Positions 990 through 51,157 of a stretch of DNA of 51,533 nucleotides are shown piece by piece. The position numbers and the translations under genes are program-made. Position 1 is the first letter of the stretch. Each line of letters starts with the position of its first letter. The notes below the pieces were generated by a model that was given only the letters and a program-made list of their open reading frames with translations, was not told where the DNA came from and ran no database searches. The DNA comes from a virus (Duplodnaviria > Heunggongvirae > Uroviricota > Caudoviricetes), in IMG/VR virus record IMGVR_UViG_2711768018_000019; one strand, 5' to 3'.

Positions 990-1028
990 ACAACAGGAAT
1001 TGTTTCGGTATAGCTTCTGGAGTTTTCT

Positions 1029-1202: not shown

Positions 1203-1221
1203 TCATAGCTGGTGCTTTTTG

Positions 1222-1247: not shown

Positions 1248-1249
1248 CT

Positions 1250-1531
1250 TTAGTGATGTTCTTTGCCCTTCTGTTTGCCTGTTCTGACCTGTTCCCACTC
1301 GATACGTCCTTCTTCTCGTCTTTTGTCTATGTATTCCGCAAGATCCTGAATATTGATGCAACGTTTTGCTTTTTGTGATGTACCGATGCGATATGTAGGT
1401 ACAGGCAACTTACAAGCGTTTGCTTTTGCTTCTGCTGTGGCTGGACTCATACCAAAGTATTTTTGACTAACTGCTGAGAGTTCAATGTTTGGGGTATTGA
1501 ATTCAGCCATCAGTAAAAACAAGGTATTCAT
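1250..1531 (-). CDS. PrtN-family (pyocin-activator-like) phage transcriptional regulator
   Basis: 93-aa ORF starting MNTLFLLMAEF and ending ...IQDLAEYIDKRREE, which matches my recollection of the PrtN/pyocin-activator family of small prophage regulators. Confidence 0.5.
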   Translation of the reverse strand: MNTLFLLMAEFNTPNIELSAVSQKYFGMSPATAEAKANACKLPVPTYRIGTSQKAKRCINIQDLAEYIDKRREEGRIEWEQVRTGKQKGKEHH

Positions 1532-1567
1532 ATCATTTCTCCATCATAACCGGCTGCACCCGGTGAG

Positions 1568-2401: not shown

Positions 2402-2538
2402 TGCAATTATTTTGCAAGTGCTTCATTTACTATCAATAGCTACGTCACGTTATTGTTTAATGGTTCTTTATAGGGGCGGCAATAGTTAAAATTATCGCTT
2501 CCGTAAATGCCCCCGCAGGGGCATTTGCAGTAATGAAA

Positions 2539-3363
2539 TCAGGCGGTGAAAGTACCAATAAAGGTTTCTACTTTGCTGTCTTTGAATTTCTCAACAAGCA
2601 GATCACGAAATTCGTTAGCCATTTCTTCCTGTACCGCTTCCAGCTGAATAATGCGCAGAACCAGTACAGGACGATCGCCAGTGATAATGCTGAGGCGTAA
2701 TTTAAACGGACGTTCTTTCAGACCTTCAAACGGAACGCATTTAAATTCAAATGCCACTGGCATAATGTCTTTGGTCTTCGCTTCGACAGACTCCATCAGG
2801 GAGCGTTTGCCGCTGAAGTCATTATCTTCAAAATCAGCGGTCTGGTTCGCTTCAATTGTGATTTTACGGATCGCCGCAGCCGCTTTGGTTGCCTGAATGG
2901 CGTCACCATTAGCATCAAAGCCCACAAGGTAGTCGGCCCAGTCTTCAATCCATTCTGCCAGTGACTTCTGGGAGTTACGCTCGCCATTAACAGACAACAG
3001 AGCAGAGAACGGAGCTGTCTTTTTCAGTTTGAGAGTGGCGGTGTTATCTGCGTGACCTGGTTCATCAATAGTACCCAGGTTAAGAACACTGACGGCACGC
3101 ATATTATCAGCATCGATAAAGCAGCGGGTGCCTTCATCTGCAAGATCTTTAGAATAACGAGTAAAGTCATCGATGCTGGCAGTGGAAAGCGCACCACGGA
3201 AACGGAAACGATTTAAATTTAATTTTTCCAGATCATGAATGCGGAAATTCTCAGGCAATGCCACAGCATCGGCACCAATCTTACTGATAATTTCATTAAC
3301 ACCCTGAGCAGAAATAAGGGCATGGATTTGATTAATTGCGGTTGCGTCTAAGTTCTGAGACAT
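2539..3363 (-). CDS. YfdQ-like DUF2303 prophage protein
   Basis: 274-aa ORF beginning [21 protein letters not shown]. Size and sequence match my recollection of the YfdQ/DUF2303 family of lambdoid early-left-operon proteins. Confidence 0.5.
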
Positions 3364-3428
3364 AATAAGTCCTCACTATATAAAGATATTCAGTGATGAG
3401 ATAAATAATCGGTTAATTAAGAACGATA

Positions 3429-3791
3429 TTAATGACCTGCTGCGCGGAGTTTTCCGTCAGGTTCACCGGCAAGAGTCAGTAATTGTCCCTGGTCTTCCTG
3501 CAGAATAGTCAGGCGACCACCGCGATTGACATACATCGGCGTTTCGGTGGTGTCTTCTTCGGAAATTTTCCCGCGGTTAGTCGGGCGAACATATGAGAGT
3601 TTGTGTTTGATTTTCACACGGTTCTCATCAAATGGTTCGATTTCCAGGTTGAGTGAGACCTTACCTTTGGTTTTCGTGTTCATCACACCGGAAGCGACTT
3701 CACTGAGAACTGCGCCGATTTTGGTTTCAAATACGCCGCCGTCCAGCTCCCCAATAAATGCCTGCACATCAGTACTGCGTTCGCTAGCCAT
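3429..3791 (-). CDS. Hypothetical early-left-operon protein (121 aa)
   Basis: The ORF-track ORF 3429..3977 has an internal start (MASERSTDVQAF...) at 3791 preceded by an RBS-like aggagca; upstream ATGs lack an RBS. Gly/Glu-rich soluble protein. Confidence 0.4.
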   Translation of the reverse strand: MASERSTDVQAFIGELDGGVFETKIGAVLSEVASGVMNTKTKGKVSLNLEIEPFDENRVKIKHKLSYVRPTNRGKISEEDTTETPMYVNRGGRLTILQEDQGQLLTLAGEPDGKLRAAGH

Positions 3792-4410
3792 TTTGCTGCT
3801 CCTAATCATATCGACCCTGCAAGGTCGGTTGGTTTCTCCACAAAACAGAGAAGAACACCTGCGGTGGCAGCCGCCCGGATGGATTTGGTTATGAGCCCGT
3901 CGTCCGGTGATGCTCTTCTCTGTTTTGTAAAAAGAGCGGTACCAGCCGGAAGCAAGTGTACAAACTGGTACCGCCAAAGCAGTGGCTGTTGTGGTGACCG
4001 GTGCTGATCTCCGGCTTGCGGTTATTTCAGACTCTCACGGGCGTTTAATTGCCCCGCCGAACAGCTCTTTTCCGCATTAGCTGCAATGTCTTTCGCGCAT
4101 CAGCCTGCGCATTCACCACAACGCTGAGAGCACTTAGCCAGTTACGGCACCACACTTTGTCGCGGTTCCATAAATGTCCTCATCGTTGCACCCTGGTCTC
4201 TTCCCAGGCGTCAAACCGAATCGCCACGCTGGTTAGGCGTCTTATCAGCATCATCATTGACTTGCACATTCCGGCTACCTGGTTTGTTTGCCCGAGCAAG
4301 GAGTGGATTGTCCCCTTTAACGTCCCCAGACCGCTAACGACGCATGTGCCATACGCCGTGTTACAACCAAATTTTGTTTAATCTTGCCTGTGCTGTGTTT
4401 CTTTTAGATA

Positions 4411-4439
4411 CATTATGTATCCCAAAGGTACATTGTCAA
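4411..4439 (-). promoter_or_regulatory. pL-like leftward promoter with overlapping operator (OL)
   Basis: On the minus strand: -35 TTGACA (4439..4434), 17-nt spacer, -10 ATAATG (4416..4411). The palindrome ATGTATCccaaaGGTACAT (4415-4433) overlaps the spacer and shares the GGTACA half-site seen at OR. Confidence 0.5.
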
Positions 4440-4443
4440 GTAT

Positions 4444-4466
4444 AAAAAAACCTGCCGAAGCAGGTT
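4444..4466 (-). terminator. Rho-independent terminator downstream of the repressor gene
   Basis: Minus strand reads acctgcTTCGgcaggt followed by a 7-T run, 12 nt after the cI stop. Confidence 0.65.
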
Positions 4467-4477
4467 ATAAATATTGA

Positions 4478-5152
4478 TTAGGCCTTTATTATGTATCTTC
4501 TTGGTTTTCCTGAGAAAATCACTGTACCAATTATAGAGCAATTACCGTTAATCTTAATGTAAGGCTCAGGCCAGTTTGGGTTTAATGCTTTGAGATAACG
4601 CTGTGTTCCATCTTCTATCAACCGCTTGAAGGTGGTTTCGCCTGTATCGTGCATCAATGCAATAACGTCGTCACCGTGGCAGGCAGGGACTTCAGGATCA
4701 ACAAAAATCATGTCTCCCGGGCGGTACTCATCAATCATTGAATCACCAATCACCCGCAAGATATAAGTCATTTCGCCACAGGGTACAGGGCAGGGATAAG
4801 TTTCTGCTGTGCTCAAATCAACCTCAGAATAGCCAACTTCTTTCCATGCTCCGGCCTGTACCCATGATATGACAGGGACTAACGTTATTTGTTTGTTAGT
4901 GATTGAAACGTCAGGTTTTTTTGTGATGTTCGTTGTCTGGTGTTCTTGATCAAGCCATCCGACAGGCAGGTCGAAACATTTTTCGATGTGCCGTGCCATG
5001 CTGTCACCGATATTTTTAGTTGCACCATCTCCCATAAACCTGCTGGTCTGGGTTGGCTCGCGATCAATCATGGTGGCAAAGGAAGAATTCCCGCCAACAC
5101 CATCTCTCAGTTTTCTGGCGTTAGACCGCCGGATGTCATGGACTGTTTTCAT
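4478..5152 (-). CDS. cI: CI-type prophage repressor (HTH plus S24 LexA-like peptidase domain)
   Basis: 224 aa. N-terminal HTH region and a C-terminal S24 signature with Ser in GDSM (VIGDSMIDEYRPGDMIFVD) and a downstream Lys (TTFKRL). Divergent from the Cro-like gene across an operator region. Confidence 0.8.
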   Translation of the reverse strand: MKTVHDIRRSNARKLRDGVGGNSSFATMIDREPTQTSRFMGDGATKNIGDSMARHIEKCFDLPVGWLDQEHQTTNITKKPDVSITNKQITLVPVISWVQAGAWKEVGYSEVDLSTAETYPCPVPCGEMTYILRVIGDSMIDEYRPGDMIFVDPEVPACHGDDVIALMHDTGETTFKRLIEDGTQRYLKALNPNWPEPYIKINGNCSIIGTVIFSGKPRRYIIKA

Positions 5153-5242
5153 AAAGAAATTAAAACCTTTGTACCGATAAGGTACAAGTATCTTGAAGGT
5201 TCATCTCAATCATGTAATATGTATACCGGAGGTACATATTGT
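5153..5242. promoter_or_regulatory. OR region: operators with divergent pRM/pR promoters
   Basis: Perfect palindrome TTGTACCgataaGGTACAA at 5169-5187; second imperfect site GTATACCggaGGTACAT at 5221-5237. pR candidate: -35 TTGAAG (5193-5198), 16-nt spacer, -10 TAATAT (5215-5220), upstream of the Cro-like ATG at 5243. Confidence 0.55.
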
Positions 5243-5443
5243 ATGAAAGCGTATTGGGACTCTTTAACCAAAGAACAGCAGGGTGAGTTGGCCGGAAAAG
5301 TTGGCTCAACACCAGGCTACTTACGGCTGGTTTTCAATGGTTATAAAAAAGCCAGTTTTGTGCTGGCTAAAAAACTTGAGCAATGCACGTCAGGTGCAAT
5401 TACGAAATCTGACTTAAGACCGGATATCTATCCGAAAGATTAA
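5243..5443 (+). CDS. cro: Cro-like (YdaS-family) HTH regulator
   Basis: 66-aa ORF (MKAYWDSLTKEQQGELAGKVGSTPGYLRLV...SDLRPDIYPKD) with RBS ggagg. The HTH and C-terminal DLRPD motif are typical of YdaS/Cro-family proteins. Not in the ORF track because the 4940..5443 frame shadows it. Confidence 0.6.
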   Translation: MKAYWDSLTKEQQGELAGKVGSTPGYLRLVFNGYKKASFVLAKKLEQCTSGAITKSDLRPDIYPKD

Positions 5444-5474
5444 CAGAACACCTTCAATTTTTAACCACAGAACG

Positions 5475-6038
5475 ATGAGGCTAACCGTGGGTAAGCATCA
5501 CTGGAAAGTAGAAAAACAGCCTGAGTGGTACGTGAAAGCTGTCAGAAAAACTATCGCGGCGTTGCCGGGGGGTTACGCTGAAGCTGCTGAGTGGCTGGAT
5601 GTAACAGAGAACGCTTTATTCAACCGCCTTCGTGCAGATGGCGATCAGATTTTCCCGCTGGGATGGGCAATGATTTTACAGCGCGCGGCTGGCACTCACT
5701 ACATTGCGGATGCTGTCGCACAGTCTGCTGGTGGGGTGTTTGTATCGCTTCCTGAAATTGAGGAAGTAGAGAACGCCGATATAAACCAGCGCCTGCTGGA
5801 AGTCATCGAACAGATCGGGAGTTACTCAAAGCAGATTCGTTCGGCAATCGAAGATGGGGTAGTGGAGCCACACGAGCAGACAGCAATTAATGATGAGTTG
5901 TATCTGTCAATTTCGAAGCTCCAGGAGCATGCAGCACTGGTCTACAAAATCTTTTGCGCTCCAGAAAAGAGTGACGCCCGCGAGTGTGCAGCTCCGGGCG
6001 TCGTGGCGTTTTGTGTCTGTGGAGAAACTAACGCATGA
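5475..6038 (+). CDS. YdaT/CII-like early regulatory protein
   Basis: 187-aa ORF immediately after the Cro-like gene, which is the conserved YdaS-YdaT arrangement. Assignment rests on position and general resemblance only. Confidence 0.4.
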   Translation: MRLTVGKHHWKVEKQPEWYVKAVRKTIAALPGGYAEAAEWLDVTENALFNRLRADGDQIFPLGWAMILQRAAGTHYIADAVAQSAGGVFVSLPEIEEVENADINQRLLEVIEQIGSYSKQIRSAIEDGVVEPHEQTAINDELYLSISKLQEHAALVYKIFCAPEKSDARECAAPGVVAFCVCGETNA

Positions 6039-30066: not shown

Positions 30067-30075
30067 GAGTCTCTG

Positions 30076-30774
30076 ATGCAGGATATTCCACAGGAAACAC
30101 ATCATGAGACGACACGCCTCACTCAGTCAGCCCAGGTGGTGCTCTGGGAAATCGATCTGACAGAGGTCGGTGGAGAACGTTATTTTTTCTGTAATGAGCA
30201 GAACGAAAAAGGTGAGCCGGTCACCTGGCAGGGGCGACAGTATCAGGCGTATCCCATTCAGGGGACGGGATTTGAACTGAACGGCAAGGGCAGTGCTGCC
30301 CGTCCGACACTGACGGTTTCTAACCTGCACGGCATGGTCACCGGGATGGCGGAAGATCTGCAGAGTCTGGTCGGCGGAACGGTGGTCCGGCGTAAGGTTT
30401 ACGCCCGTTTTCTGGATGCGGTGAACTTCGTCAACGGAAACAGTGACGCCGATCCGGAGCAGGAGGTGATCAGCCGCTGGCGCATCGAGCAGTGCAGCGA
30501 ACTGAGCGCGGTGAGTGCCTCCTTTGTACTGTCCACGCCGACGGAAACGGATGGCGCTGTTTTTCCGGGGCGCATCATGCTGGCCAACACCTGCACCTGG
30601 ACCTATCGCGGCGATGAGTGCGGTTATCACGGTCCGGCGGTCGCGGATGAATATGATCAGCCGACGTCCGATATCACGAAGGATAAATGCAGCAAATGCC
30701 TGAGCGGCTGTAAGTTTCGCAATAACGTCGGCAACTTTGGCGGCTTCCTTTCCATTAACAAACTTTCGCAGTAA
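30076..30774 (+). CDS. L: Minor tail protein L (copy 1)
   Basis: 232 aa, near-identical to lambda gpL (VVLWEIDLTEVGGERYFFCNEQNEKGEPVTWQGRQYQ…). Confidence 0.9.
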   Translation: MQDIPQETHHETTRLTQSAQVVLWEIDLTEVGGERYFFCNEQNEKGEPVTWQGRQYQAYPIQGTGFELNGKGSAARPTLTVSNLHGMVTGMAEDLQSLVGGTVVRRKVYARFLDAVNFVNGNSDADPEQEVISRWRIEQCSELSAVSASFVLSTPTETDGAVFPGRIMLANTCTWTYRGDECGYHGPAVADEYDQPTSDITKDKCSKCLSGCKFRNNVGNFGGFLSINKLSQ

Positions 30775-30779
30775 ATCCC

Positions 30780-31523
30780 ATGACAGAGACAGAATCAGCG
30801 ATTCTGGCGCACGCCCGGCGATGTGCGCCAGCGGAGTCGTGCGGCTTCGTGGTGAGAACACCGGAGGGGGAAAGATATTTTCCCTGCGTGAATATCTCCG
30901 GTGAGCCGGAGGAGTATTTCCGGATGTCGCCGGAGGACTGGCTGCGGGCAGAGATGCAGGGTGAGATTGTGGCGCTGGTCCACAGCCACCCCGGTGGTCT
31001 GCCCTGGCTGAGTGAGGCCGACCGGCGGCTGCAGGTGCAGAGTGATTTGCCGTGGTGGCTGGTCTGCCGGGGGGCGATTCACAAGTTCCGCTGTGTGCCA
31101 CATCTTACCGGGCGGCGCTTTGAGCACGGGGTGACGGACTGTTACACGCTGTTCCGGGATGCTTACCATCTGGCGGGGATTGAGATGCCGGATTTTCATC
31201 GCGGGGATGACTGGTGGCGTCACGGTCAGAATCTCTATCTGGATAATCTGGAGGCTACAGGGCTGTATCAGGTGCCGTTGTCAGCGGCGCAGCCGGGCGA
31301 TGTGCTGCTGTGCTGTTTTGGTTCATCGGTGCCGAATCATGCCGCCATTTACTGTGGTGACGGCGAGCTGCTGCACCATATTCCTGAACAACTGAGCAAA
31401 CGAGAGAGGTATACCGACAAATGGCAGCGACGCACACACTCCCTCTGGCGTCACCGGGCATGGCACGCATCTGCCTTTACGGGGATTTACAACGATTTGG
31501 CCGCCGCATCGACCTTCGAGTGA
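30780..31523 (+). CDS. K: Tail tip assembly protein K (copy 1)
   Basis: MTETESAILAHARRCAPAESCGFVV ... HSHPGG (JAB/MPN-like) ... NlpC/P60-like C-terminus, as in lambda gpK. Confidence 0.9.
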   Translation: MTETESAILAHARRCAPAESCGFVVRTPEGERYFPCVNISGEPEEYFRMSPEDWLRAEMQGEIVALVHSHPGGLPWLSEADRRLQVQSDLPWWLVCRGAIHKFRCVPHLTGRRFEHGVTDCYTLFRDAYHLAGIEMPDFHRGDDWWRHGQNLYLDNLEATGLYQVPLSAAQPGDVLLCCFGSSVPNHAAIYCGDGELLHHIPEQLSKRERYTDKWQRRTHSLWRHRAWHASAFTGIYNDLAAASTFE

Positions 31524-32068
31524 AAACGGGGTCCGAAGCCATCCGGGCGCTGGCCATGCAGATCCCGGCGTTTCGTCAGAAACTGAATGAGGGCTGGTAT
31601 CAGGTGCGCATTGCCGGGCGTGATGCAGGCGAAAATGAATTATCTGCCCGTCTTAATGAGCCGCTGGCAAATGGTGCCGTGATCCACATCGTGCCGCGTC
31701 TGGCGGGAGCTAAAAGTGGCGGTGTGTTTCAGGTGGTGCTTGGGGCGGCGCTGATTGCGGTGGCATGGTGGAACCCTGTGGGCTGGCTGGGGGCCGCGGC
31801 TGTATCGGGCATGTATGCGGCAGGGGCCAGTATGATCCTGGGCGGAGTGGCGCAGATGCTGGCACCGAAAGCCAGGACGCCCACGGCAGCCAGTACAGAT
31901 AACGGCAAACAGAACACCTATTTCTCCTCACTGGATAACATGGTTGCCCAGGGCAATGTTCTGCCTGTTCTGTACGGTGAAATGCGCGTGGGGTCACGTG
32001 TGGTTTCTCAGGAGATCAGCACGGCAGACGAAGGGGATGGTGGTCAGGTTGTGGTGATTGGTCGCTGA
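31421..32068 (+). CDS. I: Tail assembly protein I (copy 1)
   Basis: MAATHTLPLASPGMARICLYGDLQRFGRRIDLRVKTG ... matches lambda gpI; overlaps the 3' end of K. Confidence 0.85.
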   Translation: MAATHTLPLASPGMARICLYGDLQRFGRRIDLRVKTGSEAIRALAMQIPAFRQKLNEGWYQVRIAGRDAGENELSARLNEPLANGAVIHIVPRLAGAKSGGVFQVVLGAALIAVAWWNPVGWLGAAAVSGMYAAGASMILGGVAQMLAPKARTPTAASTDNGKQNTYFSSLDNMVAQGNVLPVLYGEMRVGSRVVSQEISTADEGDGGQVVVIGR

Positions 32069-32128
32069 TGCAAAATGTTTTATGTGAAACCGCCTCCGGG
32101 CGGTTTTGTCGTTTATGGAGCGTGAGGA

Positions 32129-34124
32129 ATGGGTAAAGGCAGCAGTAAGGGGCATACCCCGCGCGAAGCAAAGGACAACCTGAAGTCCACGCAGTTGCTG
32201 AGTGTGATCGATACCATCAGCGAAGGGCCGGTTGAAGGTCCGGTGGATGGATTAAAAAGCGTGCTGCTGAACAGTACACCGGTGCTGGACAGTGAGGGGA
32301 ATACCAACATCTCTGGTGTCACGGTGGTGTTCCGGGCAGGTGAGCAGGAACAGACACCGCCGGAGGGATTTGAATCATCAGGTTCCGAGACGGTACTGGG
32401 TACGGAAGTGAAATACGACACGCCGATCACCCGGACCATCACGTCGGCAAACATTGACCGACTGCGTTTTACCTTCGGTGTACAGGCACTGGTGGAAACC
32501 ACCTCAAAGGGAGACAGGAATCCGTCTGAAGTTCGCCTGCTGGTTCAGATACAGCGTAACGGTGGCTGGGTGACGGAAAAAGACATCACCATTAAGGGCA
32601 AAACCACCTCGCAGTATCTGGCCTCGGTGGTGGTGGGTAACCTGCCGCCGCGCCCGTTCAATATACGGATGCGCAGGATGACGCCGGACAGCACCACAGA
32701 CCAGCTGCAGAACAAAACGCTCTGGTCGTCATACACCGAAATCATCGATGTGAAACAGTGCTACCCGAACACGGCACTGGTCGGCGTGCAGGTGGATTCG
32801 GAGCAGTTCGGCAGCCAGCAGGTGAGCCGTAATTATCATCTGCGCGGGCGCATTCTGCAGGTGCCGTCGAGCTATAACCCGCAGACGCGGCAATACAGCG
32901 GTATCTGGGACGGAACGTTTAAGCCAGCATACAGCAACAACATGGCCTGGTGTCTGTGGGATATGCTGACCCATCCGCGCTACGGCATGGGGAAACGTCT
33001 TGGTGCGGCGGATGTGGACAAATGGGCGCTGTATGTCATCGGCCAGCATTGCGATCAGTCGGTGCCGGACGGTTTTGGCGGCACGGAGCCGCGCATCACC
33101 TGTAATGCGTACCTGACCACACAGCGCAAGGCGTGGGATGTGCTCAGTGATTTCTGCTCGGCGATGCGCTGTATGCCGGTATGGAACGGGCAGACGCTGA
33201 CGTTCGTGCAGGACCGACCGTCGGATAAGGTGTGGACCTATAACCGCAGTAATGTGGTGATGCCGGATGATGGTGCGCCGTTCCGCTACAGCTTCAGCGC
33301 CCTGAAGGACCGCCATAATGCCGTTGAGGTGAACTGGATTGACCCGAATAACGGCTGGGAGACGGCGACAGAGCTTGTGGAGGACACGCAGGCCATTGCC
33401 CGTTACGGTCGTAACGTCACGAAGATGGATGCTTTTGGCTGTACCAGCCGGGGGCAGGCACACCGCGCCGGGCTGTGGCTGATTAAAACAGAACTGCTGG
33501 AAACGCAGACCGTGGACTTCAGCGTGGGTGCCGAAGGGCTTCGCCATGTACCGGGCGATGTCATTGAAATCTGCGATGATGACTATGCCGGTATCCGCAC
33601 CGGCGGGCGCGTGCTGGCGGTAAACAGCCAGACCCGGACGCTGACGCTCGACCGTGAAATCACGCTGCCATCTTCCGGCACCACGCTGATAAGCCTGGTT
33701 GACGGGCAGGGGAGTCCGGTCAGCGTGGAGGTTCAGTCCGTCACCGACGGCGTGAAGGTGAAAGTGAGCCGTGTTCCTGACGGCGTTGCTGAATACAGCG
33801 TATGGGGGCTGAAGCTGCCGACGCTGCGCCAGCGCCTGTTCCGCTGCGTGAGTATCCGTGAGAACGACGACGGCACGTATGCCATCACTGCCGTGCAGCA
33901 TGTACCGGAAAAAGAGGCCATCGTGGATAACGGGGCGCACTTTGACGGCGACCAGAGCGGCACGGTAAATGGTGTCACGCCGCCAGCGGTGCAGCACCTG
34001 ACCGCAGAAGTCACCGCAGACAGCGGGGAATACCAGGTGCTGGCCCGCTGGGACACGCCGAAGGTGGTGAAGGGCGTGAGCTTCCTGCTTCGCCTGACCG
34101 TGGCAGCGGATGACGGCCGTGAGC
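32129..34124 (+). CDS. J: Tail tip/host-specificity protein J (copy 1), 3' end lost in an assembly gap
   Basis: MGKGSSKGHTPREAKDNLKSTQLLSVIDTISEGPVEGPVDGLKSVLLNSTPVLDSEGNTNISGV ... matches lambda gpJ; the coding sequence runs into the N-run at 34125. Confidence 0.85.
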
Positions 34125-35811: not shown

Positions 35812-36137
35812 AAACCTTCCGCTGGAAAGTGAAACCCGGTATGGATGTGGCTTCGGCCCCTTCTGTAAGAAAGGTGCGCTTTGGTGATGGCTATTCCCAG
35901 CGAGCGCCTGCCGGGCTGAATGCCAACCTGAAAACGTACAGCGTGACGCTTTCTGTCCCCCGTGAGGAGGCCATGGTACTGGAGTCGTTTCTGGAAGAGC
36001 ACGGGGGCTGGAAAGCCTTTCTGTGGACGCCGCCTTATGAGTGGCGGCAGATAAAGGTGACCTGCGCAAAATGGTCGTCGCGGGTCAGTATGCTGCGTGT
36101 TGAGTTCAGCGCAGAGTTTGAACAGGTGGTGAACTGA
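35808..36137 (+). CDS. M: Minor tail protein M (copy 2, lambda-type)
   Basis: MKTFRWKVKPGMDVAS ... FEQVVN; closer to lambda gpM than copy 1 is. Confidence 0.9.
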   Translation: MKTFRWKVKPGMDVASAPSVRKVRFGDGYSQRAPAGLNANLKTYSVTLSVPREEAMVLESFLEEHGGWKAFLWTPPYEWRQIKVTCAKWSSRVSMLRVEFSAEFEQVVN

Positions 36138-36835
36138 TGCAGGATATCCGGCAGGAAACACTGAATGAATGCACCCGTGCGGAGCAGTCGGCCAGCGTGG
36201 TGCTCTGGGAAATCGATCTGACAGAGGTCGGTGGAGAACGTTATTTTTTCTGTAATGAGCAGAACGAAAAAGGTGAGCCGGTCACCTGGCAGGGGCGACA
36301 GTATCAGCCGTATCCCATTCAGGGGAGTGGTTTTGAACTGAATGGCAAAGGCACCAGTACGCGCCCCACGCTGACGGTTTCTAACCTGTACGGTATGGTC
36401 ACCGGGATGGCGGAAGATATGCAGAGTCTGGTCGGCGGAACGGTGGTCCGGCGTAAGGTTTACGCCCGTTTTCTGGATGCGGTGAACTTCGTCAACGGAA
36501 ACAGTGACGCCGATCCGGAGCAGGAGGTGATCAGCCGCTGGCGCATTGAGCAGTGCAGCGAACTGAGCGCGGTGAGTGCCTCTTTTGTACTGTCCACGCC
36601 GACGGAAACAGATGGCGCTGTTTTTCCGGGACGTATCATGCTGGCCAACACCTGCACCTGGACCTATCGCGGCGATGAGTGCGGTTATCACGGTCCGGCG
36701 GTCGCGGATGAATATGACCAGCCAACGTCCGACATCACGAAGGATAAATGCAGCAAATGCCTGAGTGGCTGTAAGTTTCGCAATAACGTCGGCAACTTTG
36801 GCGGCTTCCTTTCCATTAACAAACTTTCGCAGTAA
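36137..36835 (+). CDS. L: Minor tail protein L (copy 2)
   Basis: Near-identical to copy 1 and to lambda gpL. Confidence 0.9.
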   Translation: MQDIRQETLNECTRAEQSASVVLWEIDLTEVGGERYFFCNEQNEKGEPVTWQGRQYQPYPIQGSGFELNGKGTSTRPTLTVSNLYGMVTGMAEDMQSLVGGTVVRRKVYARFLDAVNFVNGNSDADPEQEVISRWRIEQCSELSAVSASFVLSTPTETDGAVFPGRIMLANTCTWTYRGDECGYHGPAVADEYDQPTSDITKDKCSKCLSGCKFRNNVGNFGGFLSINKLSQ

Positions 36836-36840
36836 ATCCC

Positions 36841-37261
36841 ATGACAGAGACAGAATCAGCGATTCTGGCGCACGCCCGGCGATGTGCTCCAGCGGAGTCG
36901 TGCGGCTTCGTGGTAAGAACGCCGGAGGGGGAAAGATATTTCCCCTGCGTGAATATCTCCGGTGAGCCGGAGGCGTATTTCCGTATGTCGCCGGAAGACT
37001 GGCTGCAGGCAGAGATGCAGGGTGAGATTGTGGCACTGGTCCACAGCCACCCCGGTGGTCTGCCCTGGCTGAGTGAGGCCGACCGGCGGCTGCAGGTGCA
37101 GAGTGATTTGCCGTGGTGGCTGGTCTGCCGGGGGGCGATTCACAAGTTCCGCTGTGTGCCACATCTTACCGGGCGGCGCTTTGAGCACGGGGTGACGGAC
37201 TGTTACACGCTGTTCCGGGATGCTTACCATCTGGCGGGGATTGAGATGCCGGATTTTCATC
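36841..37261 (+). CDS. K: Tail protein K (copy 2), N-terminal part, truncated by a gap
   Basis: Identical in organisation to copy-1 K up to ...GIEMPDFH, then the N-run. Confidence 0.8.
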
Positions 37262-37498
37262 NNNNNNNNNNNNNNNNNNNNNNNNNNNNNNNNNNNNNNN
37301 NNNNNNNNNNNNNNNNNNNNNNNNNNNNNNNNNNNNNNNNNNNNNNNNNNNNNNNNNNNNNNNNNNNNNNNNNNNNNNNNNNNNNNNNNNNNNNNNNNNN
37401 NNNNNNNNNNNNNNNNNNNNNNNNNNNNNNNNNNNNNNNNNNNNNNNNNNNNNNNNNNNNNNNNNNNNNNNNNNNNNNNNNNNNNNNNNNNNNNNNNN
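37262..37498. other. Assembly gap (237 N), flanked by near-identical 114-bp segments
   Basis: Sequence 37148-37261 and 37499-37612 are the same K-gene segment with about 6 substitutions, i.e. overlapping contig ends from non-identical alleles. Confidence 1.
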
Positions 37499-38173
37499 TT
37501 CCGCTGTGTGCCGCATCTCACCGGGCGGCGCTTTGAGCACGGGGCGACGGACTGTTACACGCTGTTCCGGGATGCTTATCATCTGGCTGGGATTGAGATG
37601 CCGGATTTTCATCGCGGGGATGACTGGTGGCGTAACGGTCAGAATCTCTATCTGGATAATCTGGAGGCCACAGGGCTGTATCAGGTGCGTATTGCCGGGC
37701 AGGATGTTAGCACGTCCGGATTAACGGCACAGTTACATGAGGCTCTGCCTGACGGCGCTGTGATTCATATTGTTCCCAGAGTCGCCGGGGCCAAGTCAGG
37801 TGGTGTATTCCAGATTGTCCTGGGAGCAGCCGCCATTGCCGGATCATTCTTTACCGCCGGAGCCACCCTTGCAGCATGGGGGGCTGCCATTGGTGCCGGT
37901 GGTATGACCGGCATTCTGTTTTCTCTCGGTGCCAGTATGGTGCTCGGCGGTGTGGCTCAGATGCTGGCACCGAAAGCCAGAACTCCCCGCACACAGACAA
38001 CGGATAACGGTAAGCAGAACACCTATTTCTCCTCACTGGATAACATGGTTGCCCAGGGCAATGTTATGCCTGTTCTGTATGGTGAAATGCGCGTGGGGTC
38101 ACGTGTGGTATCTCAGGAGATCAGCACGGCAGACGAAGGGGACGGTGGTCAGGTTGTGGTGATTGGTCGCTGA
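37499..38173 (+). CDS. In-frame K-I hybrid ORF (K segment joined to lambda-type gpI at a shared YQV codon stretch)
   Basis: ...LEATGLYQV|RIAGQDVSTSGLTAQLHEALPDGAVIHIVPRVAGAKSGG...: the K C-terminus and I N-terminus are missing relative to copy 1. The I part matches lambda gpI more closely than copy 1 does. Confidence 0.6.
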   Translation, partial: FRCVPHLTGRRFEHGATDCYTLFRDAYHLAGIEMPDFHRGDDWWRNGQNLYLDNLEATGLYQVRIAGQDVSTSGLTAQLHEALPDGAVIHIVPRVAGAKSGGVFQIVLGAAAIAGSFFTAGATLAAWGAAIGAGGMTGILFSLGASMVLGGVAQMLAPKARTPRTQTTDNGKQNTYFSSLDNMVAQGNVMPVLYGEMRVGSRVVSQEISTADEGDGGQVVVIGR

Positions 38174-38233
38174 TGCAAAATGTTTTATGTGAAATCGCCT
38201 CCGGGCGGTTTTATCGTTTATGGAGCATGACGA

Positions 38234-39593
38234 ATGGGTAAAGGCAGCAGTAAGGGGCATACCCCGCGCGAAGCGAAGGACAACCTGAAGTCCACGCAGC
38301 TGCTGAGTGTGATCGATGCCATCAGCGAAGGGCCGGTTGAAGGTCCGGTGGATGGATTAAAAAGCGTGCTGCTGAACAGTACGCCGGTGCTGGACAGTGA
38401 GGGGAATACCAACATCTCCGGCGTCACGGTGGTGTTCCGGGCAGGTGAGCAGGAGCAGTCACCGCCGGAGGGATTTGAATCCTCCGGCTCCGAGACGGTG
38501 CTGGGTACGGAAGTGAAATATGACACGCCGATCACCCGGACCATCACGTCGGCAAACATTGACCGACTGCGTTTTACCTTCGGTGTACAGGCACTGGTGG
38601 AAACCACCTCAAAGGGGGACAGGAATCCATCGGAAGTCCGCCTGCTGGTTCAGATACAGCGTAACGGTGGCTGGGTGACGGAAAAAGACATCACCATTAA
38701 GGGCAAAACCACCTCGCAGTATCTGGCCTCGGTGGTGGTGGATAACCTGCCGCCGCGCCCGTTTAATATCCGGATGCGCAGAATGACGCCGGACAGCACC
38801 ACAGACCAGCTGCAGAACAAAACGCTCTGGTCGTCATACACCGAAATCATCGATGTGAAACAGTGCTACCCGAACACGGCACTGGTCGGCGTACAGGTGG
38901 ATTCGGAGCAGTTCGGCAGCCAGCAGGTGAGCCGTAATTATCATCTTCGCGGGCGCATTCTGCAGGTGCCGTCGAACTATAATCCGCAGACGCGGCAATA
39001 CAGCGGTATCTGGGACGGAACGTTAAAACCGGCATACAGCAACAACATGGCCTGGTGTCTGTGGGATATGCTGACCCATCCGCGCTATGGCATGGGGAAA
39101 CGTCTTGGTGCGGCAGATGTGGATAAATGGGCGCTGTATGTCATCGGCCAGTACTGTGACCAGTCGGTGCCGGACGGCTTTGGCAGCACGGAGCCGCGCA
39201 TCACCTGTAATGCCTGGCTGACCACACAGCGCAAGGCGTGGGATGTGCTCAGTGATTTCTGCTCGGCGATGCGCTGTATGCCGGTATGGAACGGGCAGAC
39301 GCTGACGTTCGTGCAGGACCGACAGTCGGATAAGGTGTGGGCCTATAACCGCAGTAATGTGGTGATGCCGGATGATGGCGCGCCGTTCCGCTACAGTTTC
39401 AGCGCCCTGAAAGACCGCCATAATGCCGTTGAGGTGAACTGGATTGACCCGGATAACGGCTGGGAGACGGCGACAGAGCTTGTGGAGGATACGCAGGCCA
39501 TTGTCCGTTACGGTCGTAACGTCACGAAGATGGATGCCTTTGGCTGTACCAGCCGGGGGCAGGCACACCGCGCCGGGCTGTGGCTGATTAAAA
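38234..39593 (+). CDS. J: Tail protein J (copy 2), N-terminal part up to a gap
   Basis: Near-identical to copy-1 J and to lambda gpJ; interrupted by an N-run. Confidence 0.85.
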
Positions 39594-39915
39594 NNNNNNN
39601 NNNNNNNNNNNNNNNNNNNNNNNNNNNNNNNNNNNNNNNNNNNNNNNNNNNNNNNNNNNNNNNNNNNNNNNNNNNNNNNNNNNNNNNNNNNNNNNNNNNN
39701 NNNNNNNNNNNNNNNNNNNNNNNNNNNNNNNNNNNNNNNNNNNNNNNNNNNNNNNNNNNNNNNNNNNNNNNNNNNNNNNNNNNNNNNNNNNNNNNNNNNN
39801 NNNNNNNNNNNNNNNNNNNNNNNNNNNNNNNNNNNNNNNNNNNNNNNNNNNNNNNNNNNNNNNNNNNNNNNNNNNNNNNNNNNNNNNNNNNNNNNNNNNN
39901 NNNNNNNNNNNNNNN
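39594..39915. other. Assembly gap (322 N)
   Basis: Run of n characters. Confidence 1.
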
Positions 39916-39917
39916 CT

Positions 39918-40353
39918 GAATACAGCGTGTGGGGGCTGAAGCTGCCGACGCTGCACCAGCGATTGTTCCGCTGCGTGAGTATCCGTGAGAACGACGACGG
40001 CACGTATGCCATCACCGCCGTGCAGCATGTGCCGGAAAAAGAAGCCATCGTGGATAACGGGGCGCACTTTGACGGCGACCAGAGCGGCACGGTGAATGGT
40101 GTCACGCCGCCAGCGGTGCAGCACCTGACTGCCGAAGTCACCGCAGACAGCGGGGAATATCAGGTGCTGGCGCGCTGGGACACGCCGAAGGTGGTGAAGG
40201 GCGTGAGCTTCCTGCTCCGTCTGACCGTAACAGCGGATGACGGCAGTGAGCGGCTGGTCAGCACGGCCCGGACGACGGAAACCACTTACCGCTTCACACA
40301 ACTGGCGCTGGGGAACTACAGGCTGACAGTCCGGGCAGTAAATGCGTGGGGGC
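39918..40353 (+). CDS. J: Tail protein J (copy 2), middle fragment
   Basis: EYSVWGLKLPTLHQRLFRCVSIRENDDGTYAITAVQHVPEKEAIVDNGAHFDG... matches the lambda gpJ central region. Confidence 0.85.
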
Positions 40354-40396
40354 NNNNNNNNNNNNNNNNNNNNNNNNNNNNNNNNNNNNNNNNNNN
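40354..40396. other. Assembly gap (43 N)
   Basis: Run of n characters. Confidence 1.
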
Positions 40397-40398
40397 CC

Positions 40399-41673
40399 CC
40401 GGCAGCGCCGTCGCGGATTGAGCTGACGCCGGGCTATTTTCAGATAACCGCCACGCCGCATCTTGCGGTTTATGACCCGACGGTACAGTTTGAGTTCTGG
40501 TTCTCGGAAAAACGGATTGCGGATATCAGGCAGGTTGAAACCAGCGCGCGTTATCTTGGTACGGCACTGTACTGGATAGCCGCCAGTATCAATATCAAAC
40601 CGGGCCATGATTATTACTTTTATATCCGCAGTGTGAACACCGTCGGCAAATCAGCATTCGTGGAGGCTGTCGGTCGGGCGAGCGATGATGCGGAAGGTTA
40701 CCTGGATTTTTTCAAAGGCCAGATAACCGAATCCCATCTCGGCCAGGAGCTGCTGGAAAAAGTCGACCTGACGGAGGATAACGCCAGCAGACTGGAGGAG
40801 TTTTCGAAAGAGTGGAAGGACGCCAACGATAAGTGGAATGCCATGTGGGGCGTCAAAATTGAGCAGACCAAAGACGGCAAACATTATGTCGCGGGTATTG
40901 GCCTCAGCATGGAGGACACGGAGGAAGGCAAACTGAGCCAGTTTCTGGTTGCCGCTAACCGTATCGCGTTTATTGACCCGGCAAACGGGAATGAAACGCC
41001 GATGTTTGTGGCGCAGGGCAACCAGATATTCATGAATGACGTGTTCCTGAAACGCCTGACGGCTCCCACCATTACCAGCGGTGGAAATCCGCCGGCATTT
41101 TCCCTGACACCAGACGGAAAGCTGACCGCTAAAAATGCGGATATCAGCGGTAATGTGAATGCAAATTCAGGGACGCTCAACAATGTCACGATTAACCAGA
41201 ACTGTACGATTAAGGGCATGCTGGAGGCGACCCAGGTCAGAGGAGATTTCGTTAAAGCTGTATCAAAAGCCTTCCCGAAAAAAGTCGGTACGTGGGGTAA
41301 CACGGAAACACCAAACGGTACGGTTACAGTCACCATCAGCGATGATCATAACTTTGACCGCCAGATTATTATTCCGCCCATTATTTTTAACGGTATAGCG
41401 TATGACGATCCGGGGAGCGGAAATAACCCAGGAGGCACGCGATACACGGGTTATGGTTTTGAAGTTCGCAAAAACGGCGTATTAATCGCATCCAGAGAAA
41501 CTAAAGGGGCCATTCCCGGTAGTTACAGTGCAGTTATTGATATGCCGAGTGGCAGGGGAAGCGTCACTCTGGAGTTTAAGATTTTCCAGAAAGGCAATCA
41601 GGGGGCAGGCAATATCACCGACTGTACGGTGATTGTGACCAAAAAAGCCGCTTCCGGCATCAGTATTCGTTGA
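40399..41673 (+). CDS. J: Tail protein J (copy 2), C-terminal receptor-binding part
   Basis: [38 protein letters not shown] ... [10 protein letters not shown] matches the lambda gpJ C-terminus. Confidence 0.85.
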
Positions 41674-46502: not shown

Positions 46503-47873
46503 CTATGATATCCCTGAAATGTCCTCTTCAAGCTCTTTTACTGATTTCGCAATTTTAAATTTAAATTTTCTCTCTATTTCACTATTGCTAAGTTTTTTTT
46601 CATTCTCTTTCCCTATCCACATAGAAACAATTTCTCGTTTCTGAGATATATGTAGATTGTCAAAGTTAGGTATGTATTTAAAAGTCTCCGCTCTACCCCT
46701 GCGGAGTTCATAGAAAGTTTTAATCAAAGACTTTGGTTTTATTTCTGATGAAAGGCCGAATCGGCGGATAAGATTATTGATCGTATGATTAACAGCTCGA
46801 AGTTGAGCTGTTGACGTTATTTGTGAGAAGTACGATACCCATCCCAATCGTTTACCTTCAAACACACATCCCGTAATTCTAAGATTTAGTTTCCACTGAC
46901 AATATGCAACAGCTCGTTCTTTATCGCGCTTATTTTTAGCTTGTAGTAGAGCGTGTCTATATGCAGTAAAAATTTTTGCTAAGGATGACTCAAATCTAAG
47001 AATGCTCTCATGTTTTATCAATAATTCTCGATTTTTTATGTGGTAGCCCAAAAAGTTGAAACTTTCATCCAAGCTGCCTACTTTGGATTTTGAGTTCTCT
47101 TCATTTAATGGATGTGGGTTTAAATTTAATGATTGAAGCTTATCAATGATATGAGAAGCTATTTTTGTTGCTTGATATTTTGGTGTTAAAATAAGAATGT
47201 CATCAACGTATCGCATGTACCATATGTCATGCATTTTATTGATTTCATCATCGAAATTAGATAGTGATATTTCAGCTAAAATGTTTGATATCGCTAATCC
47301 CTGAGGTACTCCTCTGGTATTATTAGGGATACCTTTGCTTCCTGTGGTTCCACTTACAGTAGGCACGATTAATGATGATGTTATTAACTGTCTAATTTCT
47401 TTTTTTCTAATTTTATTTTTTATTGCATTAATTATCAATTTATGTTCAATTGAAGGATAGAAACTTTTAAGATCTATTTTTGCATATTCAGCATATAGAC
47501 TGTTGTTTAATGCTTCTTTCAATGAGTCAATTACTGTATGTGGTAGTTTTAATCTGGACTTAGGATATATTTCCGTAAGGCATTCACAGAGAGCTCTAAG
47601 AGTAATTCTGTCCCTAGCAGTTGGTATGGAAATCTGTCTGGGTGTAGAGTTAGCGCCTTTAGATATTAATTTTTCTTTATATGCTGTAAATTTGTAATTG
47701 CCAGAATTAACCTTTTCAAAAATGAAAGTGATCTCATTTTTTATTGTCAAATCAAGTTTTGATGGGCGAATCCGATCTATGCCAATCGCTCCTGATTCTT
47801 TGATTTTTTCAGAGTATACTTTTAGAAGATTTTTTTTCGAGAATGACTTTTTAAAAATTCTGCTTGCAGTCAT
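46503..47873 (-). CDS. Reverse transcriptase (defence-associated, retron/UG/Abi-like; unclassified)
   Basis: 456 aa from the ATG at 47873..47871. RT motifs: RQISIPTARDRI (motif 1), AKIDLKSFYPSI (motif 2), RGVPQGLAISNILAEI (QG motif), YMRYVDDILIL (YxDD active site), FLGYHI (thumb). AT-rich; start overlaps the upstream gene's 3' end. Confidence 0.8.
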   Translation of the reverse strand: MTASRIFKKSFSKKNLLKVYSEKIKESGAIGIDRIRPSKLDLTIKNEITFIFEKVNSGNYKFTAYKEKLISKGANSTPRQISIPTARDRITLRALCECLTEIYPKSRLKLPHTVIDSLKEALNNSLYAEYAKIDLKSFYPSIEHKLIINAIKNKIRKKEIRQLITSSLIVPTVSGTTGSKGIPNNTRGVPQGLAISNILAEISLSNFDDEINKMHDIWYMRYVDDILILTPKYQATKIASHIIDKLQSLNLNPHPLNEENSKSKVGSLDESFNFLGYHIKNRELLIKHESILRFESSLAKIFTAYRHALLQAKNKRDKERAVAYCQWKLNLRITGCVFEGKRLGWVSYFSQITSTAQLRAVNHTINNLIRRFGLSSEIKPKSLIKTFYELRRGRAETFKYIPNFDNLHISQKREIVSMWIGKENEKKLSNSEIERKFKFKIAKSVKELEEDISGIS

Positions 47874-48402
47874 AGTCAATCCAAAGATATATTAATGGGA
47901 GTATATAAAGTGCGGCAGTAATAAATATTCGAAGTAATATCCATAAAATAACAATTATTTTTTCTTTTTGTGTGGGGATCCTCGTCTTAAGTCCAACTTG
48001 AGTTACCCTTGAAATTTTATCATCTATGTCACGGTGATTCTCAACCTCATTGAGCAAATTAAAATATTTTTCTTTCTGTTCAAGAGATAACTGTTGACTG
48101 GTGGTAATGTCAAAATAGAGTCGCTGTAGTGCAATATAATTCCTTCTCATGGCTATTGCTCGACCACGAAAATCTAGGTTAGATACGATCAGAGAAATAC
48201 CCAGTAGAGCCACTGAAAGTATCGCCGCAACGACATCTGTATTATCTCCTAGAACCTTTGGAAATCGCAACGTTACAATTGAAAGTACCGCACTCAATAT
48301 AGCATACCAAACGAGGATAAATTGAGAGTGTTTTTCAAGCCATTCTAGTCGATGGTGCGCTTGGATACGTGCTTTATATGTAAACCAAATATTGTCATGC
48401 AT
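47851..48402 (-). CDS. Small multi-TM membrane protein (SLATT-like candidate effector) co-transcribed with the RT
   Basis: 183 aa, RBS aagga. Two adjacent TM helices (FILVWYAILSAVLSIVTL; VVAAILSVALLGISLIVS) and a third at the C-terminus (IIVILWILLRIFITAALYILPLIYLW). Its 3' end overlaps the RT start by about 23 nt. Confidence 0.6.
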   Translation of the reverse strand: MHDNIWFTYKARIQAHHRLEWLEKHSQFILVWYAILSAVLSIVTLRFPKVLGDNTDVVAAILSVALLGISLIVSNLDFRGRAIAMRRNYIALQRLYFDITTSQQLSLEQKEKYFNLLNEVENHRDIDDKISRVTQVGLKTRIPTQKEKIIVILWILLRIFITAALYILPLIYLWIDYDCKQNF

Positions 48403-48933: not shown

Positions 48934-50031
48934 TCAAGAGGTCTTATTTCTGCTCCTTTGGAGTTCTTCAAAACGATTATGTAAAGATTTCGGATACAGT
49001 TCGGTATATACCTGCCATAGCACGTTTAATGAACGATGCCCTGTAACCTGAGCGACTTCCTCAATACTAAAACCAGCCTCAAATAAGCGACTTGCCCCTT
49101 CTCTACGCAAATCATGGTATCTCAGATCTTTAATACCTAATTTGCTTCTTACCCTCTGAAATCCTGCGGTAACAGAAGTGCTGTTATATGGAAAAATGAA
49201 TTCTGATTTTTTGGGTTGTCGCTGGACGATATCCCAGGCTTCCCCAAGCAAGGCAACTTTCATATGGTTGCCTTCCTTTTTACGTGGATCTTTCCTGTCT
49301 CTTACTAGTATAGATTTTTGTTCCTGGTCGAGATCTTCCCATCGTAACCGGCATACTTCTCCGATTCGCATACAGGACCACACAGAAAATTTGAGGATAT
49401 CAACGAACGGAATTTTTGAGCATTTATGAGTAGATCGTTGTTGAAGGCCTTCAATGAGCATGTTCAGTTCATCAGATGCTGGTCTACGATTACGACGGTT
49501 TGATTTACCAATCAAACCGAGTTTAAGTAGATATGGACGAGCGCTTTTCGCCGGGTTTGATGTGTAATTGATTCCGTATACAGGTTTTGCCGCATCCAGA
49601 ACACTGCCAAGATAACTAACATCGTGGCTGACTGTTGCTGGGCCTGCACCAGCGTTGTTTCTTAGCCTGCAATGTTCAATTACGTCATTTTCTGTCAGTT
49701 CAGATAGTTTGATCGCGGAGATGTCACTATCCATAAGCAGTTCCAGCACATATCTTTTAGTACGGCCTGCTTTACCTCCGGCATTTGGGTCATTTAAATA
49801 TTTGTGTAGTAAGTCACGGACTGTAAGTCCGTCAACAGCATTTGATGATGGAATGCCATATAGATCTAATTCCATCACTTTCTGTGCGCCCCATGTTTTG
49901 GCATGAGCATGTTTAGGGAATGTTTTGCTTTCCCTGTAAGTGATAACACCTTTTTCTTTGATAATCACATTACAGCGATAGCGTGGTGTGCCATCGGATT
50001 TTAGTCGTTTCTCTATGTTATAGTACGCCAT
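48934..50031 (-). CDS. int: Tyrosine integrase (DusA-associated family)
   Basis: 365 aa with C-terminal catalytic-domain motifs (HDLRREGASRL, VTGHRSLNVLWQVY); lies immediately beside and divergent from dusA. Confidence 0.85.
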   Translation of the reverse strand: MAYYNIEKRLKSDGTPRYRCNVIIKEKGVITYRESKTFPKHAHAKTWGAQKVMELDLYGIPSSNAVDGLTVRDLLHKYLNDPNAGGKAGRTKRYVLELLMDSDISAIKLSELTENDVIEHCRLRNNAGAGPATVSHDVSYLGSVLDAAKPVYGINYTSNPAKSARPYLLKLGLIGKSNRRNRRPASDELNMLIEGLQQRSTHKCSKIPFVDILKFSVWSCMRIGEVCRLRWEDLDQEQKSILVRDRKDPRKKEGNHMKVALLGEAWDIVQRQPKKSEFIFPYNSTSVTAGFQRVRSKLGIKDLRYHDLRREGASRLFEAGFSIEEVAQVTGHRSLNVLWQVYTELYPKSLHNRFEELQRSRNKTS

Positions 50032-50119
50032 TACACGACCTCGTTATTTCGGGTTCCCATAAAGCGTGGGAACCTGTGCGGGAACCTAACGCGAGAAAAA
50101 TAGCCTGAAATGTTCAAAA

Positions 50120-51157
50120 ATGCACGATAATCCTGAAACACAGAAAACTAATCAAACCAGCGTGATGCCTGAAAAAACTGGCGCTTACTGGAGTTCTCGG
50201 TTTAGCATTGCTCCTATGCTCGACTGGACGGACAGACATTGCCGCTATTTCTTGCGTCTGCTTTCCCGCAATACGTTGCTGTATACCGAAATGGTGACCA
50301 CAGGGGCGATTATTCACGGTAAAGGTGATTACCTGGCGTACAGTGAAGAAGAACATCCGGTAGCGTTGCAACTCGGCGGTAGCGATCCGGCGGCGCTGGC
50401 ACAGTGTGCGAAGCTGGCAGAAGCGCGTGGATATGATGAGATCAACCTGAATGTCGGCTGCCCGTCTGACCGGGTGCAGAACGGCATGTTTGGTGCGTGT
50501 CTGATGGGTAATGCGCAGCTGGTTGCCGACTGCGTGAAAGCGATGCGCGATGTGGTGTCGATTCCAGTGACGGTGAAAACGCGTATTGGCATCGATGACC
50601 AGGACAGCTATGAATTTCTCTGCGATTTCATCAACACCGTTTCCGGCAAAGGCGAGTGTGAGATGTTTATCATCCACGCACGTAAAGCCTGGCTTTCGGG
50701 GTTAAGCCCGAAAGAAAACCGTGAAATCCCGCCACTCGATTATCCGCGTGTGTATCAACTGAAGCGTGACTTTCCGCATCTGACAATGTCGATTAACGGT
50801 GGTATCAAGTCGCTGGAAGAGGCCAAAGCACACCTGCAACATATGGATGGCGTGATGGTCGGGCGCGAGGCGTATCAGAATCCGGGTATTCTGGCGGCGG
50901 TAGACCGGGAGATCTTTGGTTCCTCGGATACCGATGCCGATCCGGTGGCGGTAGTGCGCGCCATGTATCCGTACATTGAGCGTGAACTCAGCCAGGGGAC
51001 GTATCTCGGCCATATTACCCGGCATATGTTGGGCTTGTTCCAGGGTATTCCTGGCGCGCGGCAGTGGCGGCGTTATTTAAGTGAAAATGCCCATAAAGCG
51101 GGTGCAGACATTAATGTGCTGGAACACGCGCTCAAACTGGTGGCGGATAAGCGTTAA
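50120..51157 (+). CDS. dusA: tRNA-dihydrouridine synthase A
   Basis: 345 aa; TIM-barrel Dus family ([22 protein letters not shown] ... NLNVGCPS ... catalytic Cys region). The first ~25 codons are probably prophage-derived. Confidence 0.9.

Follow-up and report, generated by a model that had tools for sequence, protein, structure and literature searches.

Gene organization at the int-dusA locus

The DNA analysed here, a stretch of 51,533 nucleotides held as IMG/VR virus record IMGVR_UViG_2711768018_000019 and called the window below, is Escherichia coli DNA. This report concerns the region near its right end where an integrase gene (int) and dusA are transcribed divergently, with an 88 bp spacer between their starts. 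An earlier note, made from the letters of the sequence, had read this region as the point where prophage and host DNA meet, at the 5′ end of dusA. The gene limits given in that note (integrase to 50031, dusA from 50120) proved exact, both by open reading frame (ORF) calls and by the RefSeq annotation of strain AR434, in which identical DNA is annotated as a tyrosine recombinase/integrase and dusA. The features of the locus are listed below, where attP, attB, attL and attR are the attachment sites of the phage, of the unoccupied host and of the two prophage ends.

48934-50031, minus strand: integrase gene, ORF of 365 aa with a hit on Phage_integrase in Pfam (PF00589, E = 8e-21)
50032-50119, no strand: int-dusA spacer, phage-derived by comparison, the outer part of the int-side attP arm, with three candidate arm-type integrase sites
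50120-51157, plus strand: hybrid dusA ORF of 345 aa with a hit on Dus in Pfam (E = 8e-105), followed by pspG
50120-50215, plus strand: phage-supplied replacement of the dusA 5′ end (codons 1-32), opening with the element-family box ATGCACGATAAT
50216-50223, no strand: att core ATGCTCGA, in DusA codons 33-35 (M33-L34-D35), identical in attP, attB, attL and attR
50224-51157, plus strand: host-derived rest of dusA

The spacer was unrelated to the DNA upstream of dusA in E. coli K-12, and must also contain the divergent promoters of int and dusA. All 5426 complete E. coli genomes compared matched the dusA part of the query, and 741 of the 5426 also matched across int, that is, over the int-dusA junction. 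In most of the genomes with no match to int, the alignment began at window position 50117. Strain AR434 (NZ_CP029122, 4557436-4581261) was 100% identical to the window over 701 nt of the int-dusA junction. Its prophage has undergone heavy deletion: it is about 24 kb long and retains only fragments of portal and tail genes, so int-dusA junctions persist in defective remnants.

Position of the crossover and origin of the dusA 5′ end

The crossover was located by a four-way alignment of attP from the virion genome of phage mEp460 (NC_019716, in which the site is contiguous), attR from the window, attL from strain CDF6, and attB from the unoccupied locus of K-12. The attR sequence followed attP to the left of the core and attB to the right, attL of CDF6 did the opposite, and both switches fell at ATGCTCGA. 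From the int start to the core the window differed from mEp460 attP at 2 of 184 positions, and over dusA codons 1-32 at 1 of 96. Compared with K-12, 18 of the 96 coding nucleotides and 10 of the 32 residues left of the core were different, versus 5 mismatches in 300 nt right of the core, while attL of CDF6 showed no mismatch to K-12 in the 96 nt left of the core. The switch of parent, together with these mismatch counts, confines the strand exchange to the 8 bp at window 50216-50223. By the same comparison, window 50032-50215 is phage DNA, consisting of the spacer and a diverged copy of dusA codons 1-32.

The alignment with prophage-free dusA that the earlier note had suggested as a check thus returned an att core and a dusA 5′ region that differs from K-12, and the idea that the element supplies a replacement 5′ end was supported by it as well as by the hybrid product, which is intact at 345 aa and has a full Dus domain. 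Two of the finer claims needed adjustment. The interval 50032-50160, within which attR had been placed, does contain the phage-derived arm and the first 14 phage-derived codons, but the crossover core lies 56 nt past its right end. The first ~25 residues of DusA, noticed as unlike the rest of the protein, do come from the element, but the element-derived part is 32 residues long, and these residues are a diverged homologue of the K-12 DusA N-terminus (MHGNSEMQKINQTSAMPEKTDVHWSGRFSVAP) and no alien sequence.

CDF6 is the closest public genome, with 100% identity to window 1-6000, and the core of its other junction is located 262 nt left of window position 1. By this proxy, the other junction lies beyond the left window edge, as the earlier note had expected. 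The far ends of the prophages in the proxy genomes CDF6, AR434 and E. coli O25b:H4 each carried a native dusA 5′ fragment and the core. A search for attL within the window gave nothing, as the 29 nt around the core were present once even at 3 mismatches and no direct repeat was reported. The attL and attR names used here are a convention; PMC6328086 gives the name attL to the int-proximal junction.

The same exchange was seen with a different attB sequence in a lysogen of phylogroup B2 (ST131, E. coli O25b:H4, NZ_CP015085). Both junction cores of this lysogen read ATGCTTGA, the host variant, where mEp460 attP has ATGCTCGA. Either the C/T position is part of the overlap region and was resolved to the host's base, or T was already present in the infecting phage.

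Taken together, the comparisons make it highly probable that a tyrosine integrase of the dusA-associated integrase (DAI) family put an mEp460-like lambdoid prophage into dusA of E. coli, at the 5′ end of the gene, and that the interval between int and the core is the phage-derived arm of its int-proximal junction. In this event, attP and attB recombined inside the 8-bp identity ATGCTCGA and dusA was rebuilt as an intact hybrid gene of 345 codons, while the original dusA 5′ fragment stayed, by the CDF6 proxy, at the other junction, about 260 bp past the left window edge.

The integrase and described dusA-specific systems

The integrase was 98% identical to Int of mEp460, which is named among the DAI matches by Farrugia et al. 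(PMC4482086). Its catalytic residues R222, H306, R309, H332 and Y342 aligned to XerA and showed no or almost no variation among 58 homologues. When one genome per species was scanned, 52 loci from other species were found to encode relatives of the integrase (43-99% identity). At 33 of these loci dusA was divergent and directly upstream of int, with start codons usually 88-90 nt apart; the remaining loci included several truncated contigs, and others adjoined different genes. The neighbours other than dusA were genes for an srmB-like helicase and a sensor kinase, and upp, pgl and pyrD; exceptions with targets other than dusA were also reported by Farrugia et al. (PMC4482086). A tblastn search from the integrase also reached integrases of Burkholderia, Pseudomonas, Ralstonia and Acinetobacter phages. 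The identity to a listed DAI and the position of dusA in the homologue loci agree with the DusA-specific integrase family proposed in the earlier note, and on sequence grounds we assign the integrase to the DAI family.

The junction is therefore an instance of an integration system that has already been described. Farrugia et al. (2015) found DAIs in >200 bacteria, with a replaced dusA 5′ end, 21-bp semi-conserved att repeats, and prtN in 64% of the dusA islands (PMC4482086). Those islands and the window both have a tyrosine recombinase gene divergent from the dusA 5′ end next to it, the 5′ replacement and a prtN-family gene, and their att repeats are alike in being semi-conserved around a conserved dusA motif. 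The description of the DAI islands gives a 21-bp att consensus, whereas for the window five co-varying repeats, spread over the two arms, are put forward below, together with an N-terminal integrase domain like that of lambda Int.

The Stx phage 1720a-02 (Phi-stx2dact) was 98.3% identical to the window over 49700-50223. Balasubramanian et al. (2019) showed that this phage integrates ~100 bp into dusA with a seven-base core present in all four att sites, and that deletion of int abolishes attP formation (PMC6328086); the 8-bp core located here agrees with the 7-base core and its position. The attP arm and the pseudo-dusA 5′ end of mEp460 and 1720a-02 were 98-99% identical to those of the window, with the same dusA target and core, whereas the genomes are otherwise mosaic, cargo included.

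Repeats on the two arms of attP

Three copies of a short motif were found in the spacer.

50051-50058, minus strand: candidate arm-type site 1, an inverted copy, GGGTTCCC (GGGAACCC on the minus strand); an inverted copy is also found 5′ of the direct pair in relatives
50068-50075, plus strand: candidate arm-type site 2, GGGAACCT; its layout is conserved and its sequence lineage-specific
50080-50087, plus strand: candidate arm-type site 3, GGGAACCT, offset from site 2 by 12 nt (start to start)

The tandem motifs that the earlier note had seen at about 50058-50078 are real and did not arise by chance, but they are sites 2 and 3, about 10 nt further to the right, and the third, inverted copy had been missed. 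Exact GGGAACCT occurred in just two copies on either strand of the 51.5-kb window, and the degenerate motif GGGARCCY matched three sites in the whole window, all of them inside 37 nt.

The same three-site layout (inverted copy, ~9 nt, direct copy, 4 nt, second direct copy) was present with a different motif sequence in relatives from >25 other species in about 20 genera. Depending on the lineage, the motif in the int-dusA spacer was GGGAACCT, GGGGTGCT, GGTGTACy, GGTGTCCT, GGATACCT, GGGTGACT or TGTGRCCC. Two copies exactly 12 nt apart, start to start, were detected in 25 of 32 related spacers, most of which also had the upstream inverted copy; in this scripted test ≤1 mismatch was allowed, and for most spacers ≤1 of 200 shuffles scored equally. 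Loci L029-L038, L051 and L052, from Xenorhabdus, Serratia and Pseudomonas lundensis, encode integrases with 58-64% identity and adjoin other target genes, and they kept the two direct motifs 12 nt apart. These loci look like cases in which the core specificity changed and the arm architecture was retained.

Copies were also found on the other arm of attP. In mEp460, GGGAGCCT and GGGAACCC stand at +51 and +62 from the core, with a one-base change from the lineage motif, and attL of CDF6 has GGGAGCCT and GGGAACCT at these positions. In Yersinia phage YeP2, the other arm carries two copies of GGGGTGCT, again separated by ATT. Across the two arms, this gives 3 + 2 copies of GGGARCCY in mEp460 and 3 + 2 copies of GGGGTGCT in YeP2. 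In the distant Pseudomonas phage JBD90 (Int 34% identical), GTAGCAA repeats were present on both arms. Kp4882-1 and Vibrio PE001 were set aside as further attP examples, as their records begin at the att site and attP is thus not contiguous.

The protein that would bind these repeats was modelled with AlphaFold2 using the 58 homologues, with a mean pLDDT of 86.5. The model predicts an N-terminal domain (residues 1-58), a core-binding domain (~70-172) and a catalytic domain (~186-364). Residues 1-58 are modelled as strands 2-10, 16-26 and 29-38 and a helix 41-58, with pLDDT 82-94. The top Foldseek matches of the model were Tn1549 Int and lambda Int, and the alignment extended over 366-376 columns with full-length lambda Int versus ~290 columns with lambda Int 75-356, about 75 fewer. 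Integrase residues on the modelled N-terminal strands differ between motif classes, a relation that shared ancestry confounds.

The occurrence of the repeats on both arms, their lineage-specific sequence in a layout that is kept, and the lambda-Int-like N-terminal domain of the model mark them as probable arm-type sites. The repeats are thus probably bound by the N-terminal domain of the integrase, which would make the integrase heterobivalent like lambda Int, and such a protein would assemble an intasome on the ~230-bp attP. Likeness to lambda would extend to the three domains (by the model), to five arm-type repeats placed on both sides of a ~230-bp attP, to a core of short identity, and to a small excision factor distinct from the integrase. 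The two integrases share only ~17% sequence identity. Unlike in lambda, the arm sites of the window are distributed 3 + 2, with one inverted and a 12 nt spacing, the target is within a protein-coding gene that is repaired by the phage, and the excision factor would be of the PrtN/RdfN type instead of lambda Xis. Arm-type sites were not described in the dusA papers PMC4482086 (0 occurrences of 'arm') and PMC8409611.

The repeats lie between the int and dusA start codons, where the promoters must be, and short repeats are also bound by excision factors and regulators. They could therefore serve another protein, either an excision factor of the PrtN/RdfN type or a repressor with its operator at the divergent int and dusA promoters, and the failure of Pfam to find an arm-binding domain in Int would fit this. 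We consider such an assignment unlikely, as copies are present on both attP arms, at distances from the core of ~130-165 bp on the left and 51-69 bp on the right. Copies on both arms are the pattern of Int arm sites, while excisionase sites are usually on one arm only. Binding by another protein is also at odds with the lambda-like N-terminal domain modelled for Int, with the repeats being kept beside int in relatives that have other target genes, and with the variation of N-terminal strand residues by motif class, to the extent that ancestry allows this to be read.

The inverted pair GGGTTCCC...GGGAACC might alternatively act as an RNA or DNA hairpin, for instance in a 5′ untranslated region (5′-UTR) controlling int translation or as an insulator between int and dusA, in which case the lineage-specific changes would be compensatory. 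An 11-bp stem is indeed predicted (minimum free energy, −23.3 kcal/mol), and the inverted and direct copies co-change across lineages as in a conserved stem. The z-score is just −1.4, however, with 21 of 200 shuffles folding equally well, and no T-run or terminator was found. Moreover, site 3 and the pair of copies ~200 bp away in the other arm co-change yet cannot join the stem, and the relatives L029-L038, integrated elsewhere, have both direct copies but no clear inverted copy. A hairpin function is therefore very improbable, and we retain arm-type sites as the preferred reading of the repeats.

Several observations weigh against the integration event as reconstructed here, or against parts of it. 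Pfam found no arm-binding domain in integrase residues 1-60, and Pfam and NCBIfam together gave only a weak Int_N match at residues 72-165; the lambda-like fold of the N-terminus belongs to a predicted model. The inverted and first direct copies can pair with each other as the hairpin stem described above. The attL sequence was taken from CDF6, the closest public genome, instead of the window's own genome. None of the complete E. coli genomes of the collection matched the right half of the window (26600-51533) in full, mainly because of a 6-kb repeat of tail genes located there; CDF6, in which the repeat is absent, covers 88% of this half. A consensus scan of 49900-50350 detected no sigma-70-like promoter for int or dusA, and no terminator either. 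Expression of the hybrid dusA, which would start from a promoter supplied by the phage, is assumed by analogy with other elements (PMC8409611).

The probable excision factor and the state of the prophage

The prophage encodes a candidate excision factor near its other end.

1250-1531, minus strand: gene for a PrtN-family protein (Pfam PF11112, E = 3e-23), the mEp460 homologue of which is annotated as excisionase

In the circular form of the element this gene faces int across attP. Durand et al. (2021) identified the PrtN-like RdfN as the excision factor of dusA-specific elements, and showed that excision of one such element requires it (PMC8409611). By analogy, the PrtN-family protein is probably the excisionase, a recombination directionality factor of the RdfN type, and excision of the prophage would need it. 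Known systems akin to this one include IMEVchUSA3 and other dusA-specific SGI1-like elements, in which RdfN is placed across attP from int as in the window (PMC8409611), as well as the integrative and conjugative element (ICE) SXT at prfC. The SGI1-like dusA elements are mobilisable islands under AcaCD of IncC plasmids, whereas the window contains a lambdoid prophage. This prophage has a gene for a LexA-family repressor (S24-type, CI-like), and is presumed to be under SOS control.

The element could instead be a fixed, defective remnant, its junction being a historical scar with no working attachment site. Tail genes in the window form a diverged 6-kb tandem repeat, in which the second J-like ORF is split; the repeat lengthens the prophage to ~50.5 kb core to core compared with 44.5 kb in mEp460, and the heavily deleted version in AR434 has the same junction. 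Set against this, neither int, which has its full length and encodes every catalytic residue, nor the PrtN/RdfN gene is damaged. Compared with attP of a viable phage, the core and the complete set of arm repeats agree, at 2 mismatches in 184 nt, and near-identical modules excise in an Int-dependent manner. The mEp460 virion genome, in which attP is contiguous, likewise implies by analogy an Int-dependent excision that restores attB and forms attP. That the attachment site no longer works is accordingly rather doubtful.

The start of dusA and the K-12-type 5′ end

The annotated dusA begins with the box ATGCACG(A/G)(T/A)AAT (window 50120-50131), which shows nucleotide-level conservation across elements of many genera (loci L009-L060). 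The box was also present in relatives integrated beside other genes, where the reading frame runs into a stop within a few codons. Since the box is kept without a following ORF, it may be non-coding, with a role in attP or in int expression or regulation. Translation of DusA may start at M16 (50165) instead, to judge from this pattern.

The chromosomal dusA 5′ ends in the 5426 complete E. coli genomes were of two types, a K-12-type in 4303 and a B2-type in 1123. It is exactly at the att core that their sequences part (K-12 locus L001:1428-1607; B2 locus L008:2801-3017; compare window 50032-50223). The short N-terminus of the B2-type resembles native DusA of Salmonella and Klebsiella/Raoultella. 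The K-12-type carries the box ATGCACGNNAAT, which related elements with other target genes have with no ORF behind it, and shows 81% nucleotide identity to the element-borne (phage) copy, and it shares the signature of MH[DEG]N-type N-termini, which are those of element junctions. yjbM is located between zur and dusA in K-12-type genomes and is absent from B2-type genomes. S. enterica subsp. diarizonae has an intermediate relic in which 30 integrase codons are left.

From these comparisons we lean slightly towards the view that the K-12-type 'empty' attB is itself a domesticated relic of an ancient dusA-specific element, which would have contributed the DNA upstream of dusA, the 15-codon MHGN... 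extension and perhaps also yjbM. Against this view, no old attL was found near zur in K-12-type genomes. A simple 'intact relic element' was rejected, as no B2-type dusA 5′ fragment was found by zur and the homology to the B2 arrangement stops ~90 nt from the zur start; with no surviving fragment there, a relic origin would need further deletions. Upstream of K-12 dusA, a candidate remnant of an integrase start gave a weak match, with 16 of 24 nt identical, a level that 39 of 2000 shuffles attained, and tblastn gave nothing convincing in this region.

Other genes carried by the prophage

The window prophage differs from mEp460 and 1720a-02 in the 6-kb tail repeat, in a pair of RT_UG17 and SLATT genes adjoining DinI and int, and in a Panacea-domain gene at the opposite end; it has no stx. 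The pair at 46503-48402 (minus strand) encodes a UG17 reverse transcriptase (PADLOC RT_UG17, E = 1e-158) and an overlapping SLATT_5 two-transmembrane protein (RTasSLATT, E = 1.5e-56). These matches identify it as a putative anti-phage defence pair of the DRT type, carried as cargo between a tail-fibre assembly gene and DinI/int.

The tandem repeat (30073-34088 and 36134-40215) comprises tail-tip genes including a J-like gene, with 91-96% identity and a period of 6,061 bp. The second J-like copy is split into ORFs 38234-39919 and 40342-41673, and CDF6 has a single copy of the repeat. Window 1-573 encodes a Panacea/SocA-domain protein (Pfam, E = 2e-18) and overlaps by 4 nt a 139-aa ORF (570-989) with no family assigned. 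By this arrangement, the gene pair at 1-989, just inside the other prophage end, may be toxin-antitoxin-like. A different Panacea-domain gene occupies the same position in AR434.

Implications

The main value of the analysis is for annotation: the prophage boundary and the att core are fixed to the base, and codons 1-32 of dusA as annotated are assigned to the phage. If the reading of the repeats is right, the DAI family would have, in the five co-varying repeats, its first defined arm-type sites. Such sites, probable and defined comparatively, would be needed for the design of minimal attP cassettes or dusA-targeting integration vectors. The 5′ end of dusA in K-12, including the promoter region and the N-terminal extension, possibly came from a mobile element, which bears on the true translation start of DusA and on how repeated integration may reshape a housekeeping gene.

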